This document shows positions 13,714 through 22,439 of a stretch of 64,000 nucleotides of DNA, piece by piece. Positions within the stretch are counted from its first letter, which is position 1, and every line of letters starts with the position of its first letter. A program made the position numbers and the translations under genes. A model generated the notes under the pieces. It was not told the origin of the DNA and made no database searches. It saw only the letters and a list, made by a program, of their open reading frames with translations. The DNA is from SAR86 cluster bacterium (GTDB taxonomy: Bacteria; Pseudomonadota; Gammaproteobacteria; Magnimaribacterales; TMED112): assembly GCA_003331605.1 (NCBI GenBank), contig QOPD01000001.1, forward strand, positions 147,936 through 211,935. The letters run 5' to 3'.

Positions 13714-13714
13714 A

Positions 13715-13741
13715 AAAAGGCACCAGGAACAGGTGCCTTTT
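13715..13741. terminator. Intrinsic terminator between GST and the small ORF; strongest on the minus strand
   Basis: Perfect stem AAAAGGCACC-(7 nt)-GGTGCCTTTT. The plus-strand A-run upstream gives a long U-tail on the minus-strand transcript. Confidence 0.85.
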
Positions 13742-13768
13742 CAAAATGCTTAAACTAAGCAATACCAA

Positions 13769-13900
13769 TTAGTGGGCCTTAGATTTTTCTTTAATCAAAA
13801 GATTTTTCTGTAAAAACAGATTAAATCGGTACTTTTTAAGCGTTAGCCTTTTATTAGATTTAATAGCAGCTTTATGCTGTATTAATTGCAGATTTGTCAT
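13769..13900 (-). CDS. Unannotated 43-aa basic protein MTNLQLIQHKAAIKSNKRLTLKKYRFNLFLQKNLLIKEKSKAH, downstream of a tandem glutamine riboswitch
   Basis: AAGGAG (13907-13912) lies 6 nt before ATG 13900; stop TAA at 13769-13771; promoter and riboswitch upstream, terminator downstream. Too short for the ORF track. Confidence 0.75.
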   Translation of the reverse strand: MTNLQLIQHKAAIKSNKRLTLKKYRFNLFLQKNLLIKEKSKAH

Positions 13901-13922
13901 AAACATCTCCTTTTAAAAAGAT

Positions 13923-13973
13923 GCGTTCCTTCGGTACCATTACCTACTTCCGTCTTCTTGCGAAGATGAACGA
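13923..13973 (-). ncRNA. glnA-type glutamine riboswitch aptamer (3' copy of tandem 1)
   Basis: UCGUUCAUCUUCGCAAGAAGACGGAAGUAGGUAAUGGUACCGAAGGAACGC: P1 CGUUC/GAACG, P2 UCUUC-GCAA-GAAGA, GGAAGUA junction, P3 GGUA/UACC, GAA E-loop strand. Matches the glnA motif as I recall it; no covariance search run. Confidence 0.85.
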
Positions 13974-13977
13974 GGGT

Positions 13978-14024
13978 ACGTTCCTTCAGCCTTAGCCTAC
14001 TTCCGTCCCTTGCGGGATGAACGA
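13978..14024 (-). ncRNA. glnA-type glutamine riboswitch aptamer (5' copy of tandem 1)
   Basis: UCGUUCAUCCCGCAAGGGACGGAAGUAGGCUAAGGCUGAAGGAACGU: same core, P2 UCCC-GCAA-GGGA, P3 GGC/GCU. Confidence 0.83.
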
Positions 14025-14069
14025 GTAGTCTTTTAACCCATGACAAATGGAGAGAAAATTCCCAATTTC

Positions 14070-14098
14070 AATATACCAAAATGGCCAAAATTTAGCAA
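14070..14098 (-). promoter_or_regulatory. sigma70-like promoter for the riboswitch/small-ORF transcript
   Basis: Minus strand TTGCTA-N17-TATATT with TG of an extended -10. Confidence 0.6.
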
Positions 14099-15110: not shown

Positions 15111-15186
15111 TGGTGCCCAGAGGTGGAATCGAACCACCGACACAAGGATTTTCAGTCCTTTGCTCTACCAACTGAGCTATCTGGGC
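15111..15186 (-). tRNA. tRNA-Phe (GAA)
   Basis: GCCCAGATAGCTCAGTTGGTAGAGCAAAGGACTGAAAATCCTTGTGTCGGTGGTTCGATTCCACCTCTGGGCACCA: 76-nt cloverleaf with encoded CCA. Confidence 0.98.
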
Positions 15187-20308: not shown

Positions 20309-20713
20309 ATGGATTTATTCGATTTTTTATTTTCTAGATGGTATCTATCACTTCCATTGTTCATAACTTTGGTTTCTTGGTGGATATACGAAAATAATAA
20401 AGGCGGCAAAAAGATTGGTCCAACAGAGGCAACACAATTGGTCAATCAAAGCTCTGCATTTTTCTTGGATATTAGAGATAGAGATTCTTTCGAGTCAGGT
20501 CATATACATGGATCTATAAATGTCCCAAAGGAGAGTTTCAAGCAACAAGAACATCTTCTAGTGAATGATAAAGCGGTAATCATAGTTTCGGAAAATGGCT
20601 TGGATGCTGGTGGAGCAGGTGTTGAGCTCAAGCAATTAGGTGTCAAACAAGTATTTCTTTTGAAGTATGGCCTAGTTTCTTGGGCAGAAGAGAGCCTCCC
20701 ACTTGTAAAGTAG
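20309..20713 (+). CDS. Rhodanese-like domain protein (YibN-like)
   Basis: N-terminal TM helix, LDIRDRDSFESGHIHGSINVP and LKYGLVSW motifs. Confidence 0.85.
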   Translation: MDLFDFLFSRWYLSLPLFITLVSWWIYENNKGGKKIGPTEATQLVNQSSAFFLDIRDRDSFESGHIHGSINVPKESFKQQEHLLVNDKAVIIVSENGLDAGGAGVELKQLGVKQVFLLKYGLVSWAEESLPLVK

Positions 20714-20727
20714 AAGGCTCAATTAGT

Positions 20728-22134
20728 TTAGACACTATAGTACATATCGAATTCGACTGGATGAGTCGACATTCTTAGTCTATCAACTTCTTCCATTTTC
20801 AGTGAAATATAGTCATCAATTAAATTATCGGTAAAAACACCACCTTCTTTTAAGAAAGCTCGATCTTTATCCAAGGCTTGCAAGGCTTCATCAAGAGAAC
20901 TGCAAACGGTTTTAAATCTTCTTAGTTCTCTAGTAGATGCTTCATAGAGATCAAGATCACCCGGTTTCCCTGGATCAATTTTATTTCGTATTCCATCGAG
21001 TCCAGCCATAAGCATTGCTGCAAAAGTAAAGTAAGGGTTGCCTGATGCATCAGGGAATCTAACTTCTATTCTGGCTGCTTTTGGATTGCTTTCATAAGGG
21101 ATCCTGATAGAAGCCGATCTATTCTTATTTGAATAGGTAAGAATCACTGGGGCTTCGAAACCAGGCACGAGCCTTTTATAACTATTTGTGGTGGCATTGG
21201 AAAAGGCATTGATTGCTCTCGCATGCTTCATAATTCCACCAATGTAATAGAGAGCGTTTTGACTTAAACCACCATATTCTTTACCTGTGAATAAATTGAC
21301 TCCATCTTTTACAAGAGATTGGTGGCAATGCATCCCACTTCCGTTATCCCCAACCAATGGTTTTGGCATAAAAGTTGCTGTTTTCCCATAGTTAAATGCA
21401 GTGTTATGAACACAGTACTTAAATGTTTGAATATCGTCAGCCTTTTTTGTTAACGAATTAAATTTCACCCCTATTTCACACTGTCCAGCAGTACCAACTT
21501 CGTGGTGATGAACTTCCGTCTCAAGACCAAAATCTTGACAGGCCTTACAAGCTGCAGCTCTAAGATCTGCAAGAGAGTCAACAGGTGGGACAGGGAAGTA
21601 ACCACCTTTTACTCCTGGCCTATGACCAAGGTTGCCTTCTTCGTATTCAGTATCTGTTTCCCATGCACCTTCTTCAGAAGAAATTTGGTATGACATTTTT
21701 TGCATTTCAGTTGACCATCTGATGTCATCAAAGACAAAGAACTCAGGCTCTGGTCCAAAGAATGCCTCATCGGCAATACCTTCAGATCTCATAAAGTCTT
21801 CTGCCTTTTTTGCGACTGATCTAGGGTCTTTTTCGTACCCTTTTCCATCGCTTGGTTCAACGATATCGCATCTTAATATTACAAGAGGGTCATCGGAGAA
21901 AACATCAAGAACACAAGTACTATCATCTGGCATGAGAATCATGTCTGATTCATTGATTGGTTTCCAGCCTGCTATGGAAGAACCATCAAACATTTTTCCA
22001 TCGGTGAAGAAGCTTTCATCTACTGTGCTAGTAGATACTGTTACGTGCTGCTCTTTACCTTTGGTATCGGTAAAGCGTAGGTCAACCCATTCAGCTTTTG
22101 AATCGGCAATGAGTTTTAAAGTATTTTTTGACAT
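20728..22134 (-). CDS. glnA: Glutamine synthetase type I
   Basis: [46 protein letters not shown] and NRSASIRIP motifs; the adenylylation-site Tyr region (DLYE) is present. Confidence 0.99.
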
Positions 22135-22221
22135 AAAAATGCTCCAATTAAATTAATTTAAAATTTTGCATTTTTGATCTGCAGGATATTTAGAAATTAA
22201 ACTCGGTCCTGTTTAACGGGC

Positions 22222-22270
22222 GCGTTCCTTCAGCTTTCGCTTACTTCCGTCTTCTTACGAAGATGAACGA
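22222..22270 (-). ncRNA. glnA-type glutamine riboswitch aptamer (3' copy, glnA leader)
   Basis: UCGUUCAUCUUCGUAAGAAGACGGAAGUAAGCGAAAGCUGAAGGAACGC; P3 AGC-GAAA-GCU; lies in the glnA 5' region. Confidence 0.88.
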
Positions 22271-22291
22271 TTTACGTTTCCTGTAAACGGC

Positions 22292-22340
22292 GCGTTCCTT
22301 CAGTTTTAACCTACTTCCGTCTTCTTACGAAGATGAACGA
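22292..22340 (-). ncRNA. glnA-type glutamine riboswitch aptamer (5' copy, glnA leader)
   Basis: UCGUUCAUCUUCGUAAGAAGACGGAAGUAGGUUAAAACUGAAGGAACGC; P3 GGU-UAAA-ACU. Confidence 0.88.
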
Positions 22341-22410
22341 TTTAACTCTTACCTTATTAAAGGCACCTTTCTAACCATGGAGTATGGTGCAAAAATAAAA
22401 ATGCTTTTTA

Positions 22411-22439
22411 AATTTAGCTTTTTTCTGCCAAAATGGCAA
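22411..22439 (-). promoter_or_regulatory. sigma70-like promoter for glnA
   Basis: Minus strand TTGCCA-N17-TAAATT. Confidence 0.45.

Follow-up and report, generated by a model that had tools for sequence, protein, structure and literature searches.

The glnA motif (Rfam RF01739), the type 1 glutamine riboswitch, is a class that is reportedly also tied to the work of Ames and Breaker in 2011 and of Ren in 2015. It was described in 2010 from cyanobacteria and marine metagenomes, upstream of genes for PII, glutamine synthetase (GS), glutamate synthase (GOGAT) and ammonium transporters (Amt), sometimes in tandem (PMC2864571); tandems are common, with 157 doublets counted (PMC9481103). The Synechocystis copy acts as a glutamine-ON switch for IF17, a GS-inactivating factor and the product of gifB (Klahn et al., 2018, PMC6212724). 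According to the gifB model, C68 (the equivalent of C60) and the nucleotides that follow it block the ribosome-binding site (RBS) until glutamine binds (PMC6212724); ligand binding inserts G23 into the base of helix P1, where it pairs with C60 and remodels the region (PMC11477058). For the metagenomic copies linked to glnA, both the effect of glutamine and the taxonomic affiliation were stated in 2018 to be not known (PMC6212724). Here we analyse a 64-kb stretch of contig QOPD01000001.1 (the window; GC content 36%) from an uncultured marine gammaproteobacterium of the SAR86 cluster. It carries four such aptamers: tandem A upstream of glnA, and tandem B upstream of a small open reading frame (ORF) of 43 amino acids. 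We assign a probability of roughly 0.7 to a reading in which the aptamers are functional-looking, tandem B is an ON switch, glnA has a distinct expression platform and its riboswitch occupies the regulatory position of the Ntr proteins.

A related case is the SAR11 bacterium 'Ca. Pelagibacter ubique', which has a nitrogen response independent of PII and NtrBC and for which riboswitch-like amt leaders were proposed as nitrogen sensors (Smith et al., 2013, PMC3870248). It is likewise a streamlined marine heterotroph that lacks the usual protein regulators, but it belongs to the Alphaproteobacteria, its RNA motifs are different ones without a known ligand, and it offers no syntenic comparison of ntrBC with a riboswitch. 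A long-read study from 2025 mentions RF01739 in passing, inside deletions of SAR86 metagenome-assembled genomes (PMC12379486). In our literature search, no publication turned up that treats nitrogen regulation in SAR86 or connects the riboswitch with ntrBC.

Riboswitch and ntrBC at syntenic glutamine synthetase loci

The window GlnA passes the type I equivalog TIGR00653 (637.7 bits, cut-off 429). The stop codons of glnA and of a convergent rhodanese gene are 14 nt apart (20714-20727), which leaves no room for ntrBC, and neither ntrB nor ntrC lies directly downstream of glnA on the same strand. Searching the 64-kb window by tblastn with NtrB and NtrC of SAR86 gave no match, and Pfam annotation of the rest of the window revealed housekeeping genes only, with no PII, GlnD, GlnE, RpoN or Amt. 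The suggestion from an earlier, sequence-only reading of this DNA, that glnA is led by a riboswitch and is not part of a glnA-ntrBC operon, is thereby upheld for this locus.

Relatives of the window GlnA occur at 96-99% identity and then at ≤73% in other gammaproteobacteria, with none between. The lineage at 96% (loci L207-L210 in our numbering) has the synteny and the tandem of the window. Leaders homologous to that of the window glnA were also found, among 120 loci sampled by a pattern scan of metagenome contigs, before a GlnII-type GS of 325 residues (L096, L178), and GSII homologues of this type were traced to contigs for synteny comparison. Two states were seen at one genomic slot, ordered UbiA, FemAB-like, DUF1249, (YqiA), GS, rhodanese, GpmA, MutY. 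The first has a riboswitch and no ntrBC, and comprises the window and L207-L210 (GSI) together with L211/L212 and L178 (GSII): YqiA is followed by 250-315 nt with one or two RF01739 aptamers, by GS and then directly by the convergent rhodanese gene. L096 shows the YqiA flank and the tandem of this state; its contig ends inside the GSII gene, so that the downstream side is not covered. The second state has ntrBC and no RF01739 (L213/L214, L215/L216, L217, L219). There the gap upstream of GSII is 118-138 nt, and two genes separate GSII from the same convergent rhodanese gene. In the three pairs scanned (L213, L217, L219) these genes pass NtrB NF008293 (260-295 bits, cut-off 240) and NtrC TIGR01818 (648-687 bits, cut-off 558.6). 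L220 has a different context: its upstream gap is 409 nt and contains no RF01739, and GSII is separated by a Big_7 gene from a pair called NtrBC-like from Pfam domains only. Sigma-54-type -24/-12 elements are present in L219 and L220, and a TGCAC-N7-GTGCA palindrome of the NtrC type in L217.

For the outgroup, 80 type I glnA loci from other gammaproteobacteria were taken, the nearest ones among the matches listed, all at ≤70% GlnA identity. None of the 80 has an aptamer, and NtrB- and NtrC-like genes lie downstream of glnA in 58 of the 67 with enough downstream sequence. Because of these counts we regard the glnA-ntrBC arrangement as ancestral and the riboswitch state as derived. At syntenic SAR86 loci, a given GS gene thus comes either with the riboswitch or with ntrBC. 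This alternation directly supports the earlier proposal that RNA sensing stands in for Ntr control, and we infer a functional replacement of Ntr by the riboswitch in this SAR86 subclade. The riboswitch would then hold the regulatory position that NtrB/NtrC with sigma-54/NtrC-type sites hold in sister lineages. Compared with the glnA-ntrBC operon of Enterobacteria and most Gammaproteobacteria, which depends on sigma-54/NtrC and is found at the homologous site in sister SAR86 lineages, the window has the same GS gene and the same signal, glutamine status, but a sigma-70-type promoter and an RNA sensor before glnA.

The leader and the slot are the same in the window lineage and in sister lineages, and the enzyme differs: a 468-residue type I GS in the former versus a GlnII-type GS of 325-327 residues in the latter (L211:4001-4984, L178:3184-4161, L096). 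This looks like gene displacement behind a conserved leader. One further GSII locus (L218:3370-4978) has neither riboswitch nor ntrBC; a gene for an AsnC/Lrp-type regulator lies directly upstream of GS and is possibly a third regulatory solution.

The aptamers and their two kinds of expression platform

The whole window was scanned with cmscan against Rfam 15 at gathering thresholds (35 for RF01739). Five matches were obtained, one tRNA and four full-length copies of RF01739 (model positions 1-53 of 53, E 8e-14 to 7.5e-10). All copies, glnA and the small ORF were checked on the minus strand; coordinates are collected in Table 1. The sequence-only reading had described four aptamers in two tandems with shared blocks and covarying helices P2 and P3, and had named RF01739 as the covariance model to search with. 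The scores of 56.8-71.1 bits confirm the class, and the alignments contain exactly the helix variants it had listed. The blocks UCGUUCAUC, GACGGAAGUA and GAAGGAACG are common to all four copies, and the junction blocks CGUUCA, ACGGAAGUA (which carries G22/G23) and GAAGGAACG are identical in all of them. Three copies have UCUUC/GAAGA as their second helix and the remaining one has UCCC/GGGA, each closed by a GNRA loop (GCAA, GCAA, GUAA, GUAA); the third is GGC/GCU, GGUA/UACC, GGU/ACU or AGC/GCU. Thus three helices are present, and pairing is kept while the second and third vary between copies. Both tandems lie in the 5′ leader of a nitrogen-metabolism gene or small ORF, downstream of a sigma-70-like promoter. 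In tandem A, 84 nt separate the end of the Rfam match from the glnA AUG; tandem B ends 19 nt upstream of the small-ORF AUG. By sequence, the four copies are ordinary members of the class, with which they share full-length matches, conserved junctions, covarying helices, a place in leaders of nitrogen genes and the common tandem arrangement; they presumably bind L-glutamine. They differ from described members in their host, a heterotrophic gammaproteobacterium rather than a cyanobacterium, and in the uncharacterised platform of glnA.

Tandem B follows the logic proposed for gifB. The RNA 3′ of its second aptamer reads GAACG-CAUCUUUUUAAAAGGAGAUGUUUAUG, and the hairpin of GCAUCUUUU with AAGGAGAUGU is both the minimum free energy (MFE) and the centroid structure (-7.3 kcal/mol). 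Pairing of the 3′ tail with the RBS in the ligand-free state, as proposed for gifB-type switches, is thus predicted for tandem B and is not found in the glnA leader. Among 79 distinct small-ORF leaders, 94% pair at least four nucleotides of the Shine-Dalgarno (SD) region with the first ten nucleotides of the tail, and the two strands covary (CAUCU/AGAUG, CACC/GGUG, CGCCUC/GAGGCG). These data support the ON output that had been predicted for the small ORF. Against it, the shuffled-tail control is fairly high (4.5 versus 6.8 paired SD nucleotides). We suggest that tandem B is a translational glutamine-ON switch for a basic orphan peptide: in the glutamine-free state the tail of the second aptamer would pair with the SD region, and glutamine binding would recruit the base of P1, melt the tail-to-SD hairpin and free the RBS. 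A small basic product would be expected at high glutamine, as for IF17. The window differs from gifB in having two aptamers rather than one and a peptide without DUF4278 or detectable similarity to IF17/IF7; the ORF has no match in Pfam or NCBIfam. A word-indexed search of 5.8 billion proteins returned two 90% clusters, at ≥91% identity. The neighbours of tandem B show no synteny with the sampled metagenome loci. That the peptide inhibits GS as IF17 does is, by analogy, pure hypothesis.

The leader of glnA is built differently. Seven distinct leaders of one design were compared (window, L207, L211, L178, L096, L128, L203), of which that of L128 precedes a TonB-dependent receptor and that of L203 carries three aptamers. 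The loci with identical or 96%-identical GlnA have leaders too alike to yield covariation. The design begins with a sigma-70-type promoter (clearest in the window, L207, L178 and L096) and GCAUU..UUUGCAC, followed by a CCAU-loop-AUGG hairpin (H1; absent from L203) and by AGUUAAA(A)U directly before the first aptamer. Tandem aptamers are separated by CGUUN...NAACG hairpins. Downstream come the tail, the hairpin CGUUAAAC-loop-CGAGUUUAAC, UUC, the boxes CCUGCAG and AUGCA, some 30-45 nt of A/U-rich sequence, the SD and AUG. The platform of about 88 nt is conserved among SAR86 GSI, GSII and TonB-receptor leaders. The promoter TTGCCA-N17-TAAATT, with the G of GCAUU seven nucleotides downstream, is kept in L178, L096 and L207-L210, and the predicted +1 in the window is the G at 22404. 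The loop of H1 differs between lineages (ACUCC, CUCC, AUUUU), and the linker hairpin of L096 (CGUUA-GUCGGA-UAACG) has its fifth pair changed from U-A to A-U relative to the window.

Two structural features of this platform stand out. The proposed bipartite helix P0 joins the predicted 5′ end to the CUGCAG/AUGCA boxes, GCAUUUUU pairing with AAAAAUGC and UUUGCA with UGCAGA. Four of six leaders, the window included, form it in their MFE fold, and it is part of the RNAalifold consensus of seven. The window duplex (-13.8 kcal/mol) was equalled by none of 300 shuffles, and in five of the six leaders duplexes of -10.4 to -14.4 kcal/mol were equalled by 0-5 of 300. The other feature is a competition within the post-aptamer hairpin E. 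Its 3′ strand and the preceding CGA (CGAGUUUAAU) can alternatively pair with GAGUUAAAU-CG (22348-22338) just 5′ of aptamer A1, so that two GUUAAA copies, 5′ and 3′ of the aptamers, compete for a single CGAGUUUAAC strand. The 5′ copy with the first two P1 nucleotides forms the stronger duplex (-5.2 to -8.4 versus -3.8 to -6.0 kcal/mol), and constrained folds of single-aptamer leaders flip between both pairings. In the models the two pairings resemble a module for strand exchange that is coupled to the base of P1, the part remodelled by glutamine.

We propose that tandem A controls glnA through this platform, which is unlike that of tandem B. Glutamine would switch the GUUAAA strand exchange and thereby lower glnA expression, P0 would link the predicted start of the mRNA with a site some 45 nt before the glnA start codon, and the unstructured A/U-rich stretch would be a ribosome landing region. 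The OFF output is presumed on physiological grounds. Our best guess for the step is lower mRNA stability or translation efficiency at high glutamine, rather than termination or simple SD occlusion.

Several other candidates were rejected. None of the segments that could be freed (the 5′ flank X1, the tail with the E 5′ strand, the P0 3′ strand and the 5′ end) paired with the initiation region better than shuffles (p 0.11-0.99). A match of AAAAAUGC to the GCAUUUUU spacer is specific to the window (-9.2 kcal/mol, p 0.11). The riboswitch leaders have no GG/GC pair at the spacing of a sigma-54 promoter, and the CCTGCAG...ATGCA spacing is variable. A small upstream ORF starting at the AUGCA box has no SD, and its frame, length and stop are not conserved.

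Some further details of the leaders were noted. A CCAU-UUGUC-AUGG hairpin like H1 also precedes tandem B (14033-14045 versus 22375-22387 for H1), and GUUA(A/G)AA follows the small hairpin, upstream of the first aptamer, in both window leaders, which points to an accessory element that the two have in common or to their descent from one leader. The linker-hairpin loops of three lineages (window, L096, L203) contain GGA (ACAGG-A, GUCGGA, AACAGGAA) and the window post-aptamer loop contains AGGA, a resemblance to CsrA-type binding sites that may be chance. L203 (306-480) has a run of three glutamine aptamers, then a platform of the glnA type and the initiation region UUGGAGCAUUUUUU, without AUG.

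Across the sampled loci the aptamer is combined with two classes of platform. Short spacing (18-60 nt) with a tail-to-SD hairpin is found before small basic ORFs, DUF4278 included, and before gltB. Long spacing (78-129 nt) is found before GSI, GSII, four Amt genes and the TonB-dependent receptor, and also before a circularly permuted ATP-grasp gene and small secreted proteins. GS, Amt and TonB-receptor genes are classes normally induced by nitrogen limitation; this supports, but does not prove, an inverted output of the long platform relative to the short one. Another design of long leader is found mostly before genes for ammonium transporters (L134, L140, L188, L152, L103, L199). In these leaders GCAUGC after aptamer 1 can pair with AAGCAUG after the post-aptamer-2 hairpin, enclosing aptamer 2, and the second aptamers use UCGGAAGUA, not ACGGAAGUA. 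In eight other loci (L100, L112, L113, L131, L143, L165, L168, L185) aptamers precede an ORF of 21-51 residues, followed after about 190 nt by a large ORF that starts MAI(Y/F)RG(P/A)GG.GDATTDAA and looks like a phage structural gene; these copies are probably phage-borne. Glutamine riboswitches encoded by phages have been reported (PMC9004378).

Table 1. Positions of genes, aptamers and leader elements in the window
Feature	Position	Strand	Basis or detail
glnA, type I glutamine synthetase, 468 aa	20728..22134	-	TIGR00653, PF03951 + PF00120
Convergent rhodanese-domain gene	20309..20713	+	PF00581
Sigma-70-type promoter of glnA leader, TTGCCA-17 nt-TAAATT	22411..22439	-	consensus scan
5′ strands of proposed helix P0	22388..22404	-	GCAUUUUU (22404-22397), UUUGCA (22393-22388)
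Hairpin H1, CCAU-5-nt loop-AUGG	22375..22387	-	RNAalifold consensus
Glutamine aptamer A1	22289..22341	-	RF01739, 68.7 bits, E 3.7e-13
Linker hairpin between A1 and A2, CGUUU-ACAGG-AAACG	22275..22289	-	read from sequence
Glutamine aptamer A2	22219..22271	-	RF01739, 71.1 bits, E 8.1e-14
Post-aptamer hairpin E, GUUAAAC-8-nt loop-GUUUAAU	22196..22217	-	kept in all seven leaders of the design (group 1)
3′ strands of P0	22168..22183	-	UGCAGA (22183-22178), AAAAAUGC (22175-22168)
Shine-Dalgarno GGAG (22145-22142) and glnA start codon (22134-22132)	22132..22145	-	preceded by ~30 nt of A/U-rich sequence
Sigma-70-type promoter of small-ORF leader, TTGCTA-17 nt-TG-TATATT	14070..14098	-	upstream of tandem B
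Glutamine aptamer B1	13975..14025	-	RF01739, 56.8 bits
Glutamine aptamer B2	13920..13974	-	RF01739, 61.4 bits
Tandem-B expression platform hairpin	13903..13924	-	aptamer 3′ tail GCAUCUUUU with AAGGAGAUGU, covers SD
Small ORF, 43 aa from second AUG, net charge +10, MTNLQLIQHKAAIKSNKRLTLKKYRFNLFLQKNLLIKEKSKAH	13769..13900	-	called as gene in public assemblies
Intrinsic terminator after small ORF, 11-bp stem and U run	13714..13742	-	canonical

Alternative readings

A number of observations weigh against the reading we favour, and three alternatives draw on them. Ligand binding and the signs of both outputs are predictions. The flanking proteins of the riboswitch loci are far more alike to each other (YqiA 65-77%, rhodanese 65-91% identity) than to those of the ntrBC loci (35% and 34-38%); the riboswitch-bearing loci are therefore probably one clade, and the mutual exclusivity with ntrBC one evolutionary event. 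The absence of ntrBC applies to the locus and the 64-kb window, out of a genome of >1 Mb. The riboswitch might thus supplement Ntr control, with ntrBC, PII, GlnD or GlnE encoded elsewhere and with the TGCA boxes of the leader (TTGCACC, CCTGCAG, ATGCA) acting as DNA operators, for instance degenerate NtrC half-sites. Box 2 (TGCACCA) is indeed a perfect NtrC half-site, and TGCAC/GTGCA motifs lie upstream of GS in ntrBC-positive SAR86 loci. The boxes, however, differ in spacing (7-9 nt on the 3′ side, 6-9 nt at the 5′ side), no GG of a -24 element is present, and they are nested and inverted as in an RNA helix, which both MFE folding and RNAalifold recover as P0 and which is significant in the shuffle test. 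P0 and the E hairpin show no two-sided compensatory change in the seven-leader alignment, and their conservation could reflect a protein or DNA-level site; a single compensatory change was seen by eye outside the aligned core, at P0 position 6 (U-A in the window, A-U in L178). From its ancestral slot ntrBC was cleanly deleted, leaving 14 nt. We consider a supplementary role unlikely and prefer the riboswitch in the position of Ntr.

The other two alternatives concern the outputs. The glnA tandem may not be an OFF switch: it could be glutamine-ON, a structure that merely tunes or insulates, or a relic in decay without regulatory output. All glutamine riboswitches that have been characterised by experiment are ON switches (PMC6212724). 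There is no intrinsic terminator on the minus strand of the glnA leader (canonical terminators are used elsewhere in the genome, e.g. 13742-13714), and SD/AUG accessibility was unchanged in every modelled state: six homologous leaders were folded, by MFE and by partition function, either freely, with P1 forced to form, with P1 disfavoured or with a holo-like P1 of 3 bp. The sequence-only reading had already noted that neither a terminator nor an SD-occluding helix is obvious in this leader, and this holds after folding and shuffle tests. In the window and the 96%-GlnA lineage the leader is 94% identical over the whole stretch that starts at the -35 box and ends at the AUG, while the sequence upstream of -35 cannot be aligned, and the platform is kept before GSI, GSII and TonB-receptor genes; neither would be expected of a relic. 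It would make little physiological sense for glutamine to act on GS by positive feedback. The long leaders precede gene classes normally induced by nitrogen limitation, and the short leaders of the ON type are found before gltB and before IF17-like and other small ORFs; on balance we regard a glnA tandem that is not OFF as quite unlikely. Nor need the 43-residue ORF be a real gene. Tandem B could regulate a non-coding transcript or nothing, and its hairpin could be a chance product of A/U-rich sequence: the stability of the hairpin is unremarkable for its composition (z = -0.96), and the ORF is uncalled in most metagenome annotations. The ORF is also an orphan, an exhaustive HMMER search of 1.84 billion representatives returning only its own cluster, and comparison with 11 riboswitch-linked peptide families gave p ≥0.23 (Smith-Waterman). 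Against this stand AAGGAG six nucleotides before the AUG, a canonical terminator after the stop, and a length of 43 residues in all ten aligned variants with mostly conservative changes (R/K, F/Y, L/I). Moreover, 95 leaders (among the 120 sampled loci and the window) have a small ORF, mostly strongly basic, 18-60 nt after the last aptamer, and the tandem-B platform sequence is near-identical to those of two other peptide families. A spurious ORF is thus very unlikely, and we retain tandem B as an ON switch for a peptide.

A bolder combination can be drawn up, in which NtrBC/sigma-54 was lost at the GS locus, an OFF riboswitch acts on the GS mRNA (type I or II) through a new platform of 5′-end closing and strand exchange, and an ON riboswitch drives a GS-inactivating 43-residue peptide. 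We doubt that it holds in full. If true, a heterotroph would have arrived by convergence at a counterpart of the IF7/IF17 system of cyanobacteria.

Novelty and further observations

SAR86 bacteria are among the most abundant heterotrophs of the surface ocean. The aptamer class, its tandem arrangement and its association with glnA were already known. The new points are that a complete glnA-type leader can be placed in SAR86, that riboswitch and ntrBC alternate in syntenic loci, that one and the same leader stands before two non-homologous GS types, and how an uncharacterised, presumably OFF-type platform is built. Klahn et al. (2018) had asked which organisms have glnA-linked glutamine riboswitches and what glutamine does there; the window supplies a taxon, SAR86, and a leader that is complete from promoter to platform. 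A natural comparison is offered by the homologous locus, and with it the idea that RNA sensors replace protein regulators in streamlined marine bacteria can be tested directly for nitrogen control. One genome also holds a matched pair of platforms on the same low-affinity aptamer, one ON-type and one presumed OFF-type, which should be useful for studies of output wiring, and the 43-residue peptide is a candidate new small-protein regulator of nitrogen assimilation.

The source of the window agrees with its database relatives: members of the ≥90%-identity clusters of GlnA, H+-PPase and the S9 peptidase are named "SAR86 cluster bacterium" (NCBI, UniRef), and the identical GlnA sequence is present on many marine metagenome contigs, TARA samples included. 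The tRNA (15114-15186, minus strand) lies between the S9 peptidase and a PepSY_TM gene and has the anticodon GAA, presumably tRNA-Phe. In two otherwise near-identical contigs (L002:17184-18314, L004:17184-18358) it is adjoined by an insertion of 1.1-1.4 kb with unannotated ORFs, which looks like a strain-variable islet. Two other RNAs were seen on the comparison contigs: a 6S RNA (RF00013, 87 bits) downstream of zapA in an ntrBC-positive SAR86 contig (L217:559-740), and an IMES-1 RNA (RF02034, 198 bits) on the opposite strand near the three aptamers of L203 (976-1164).

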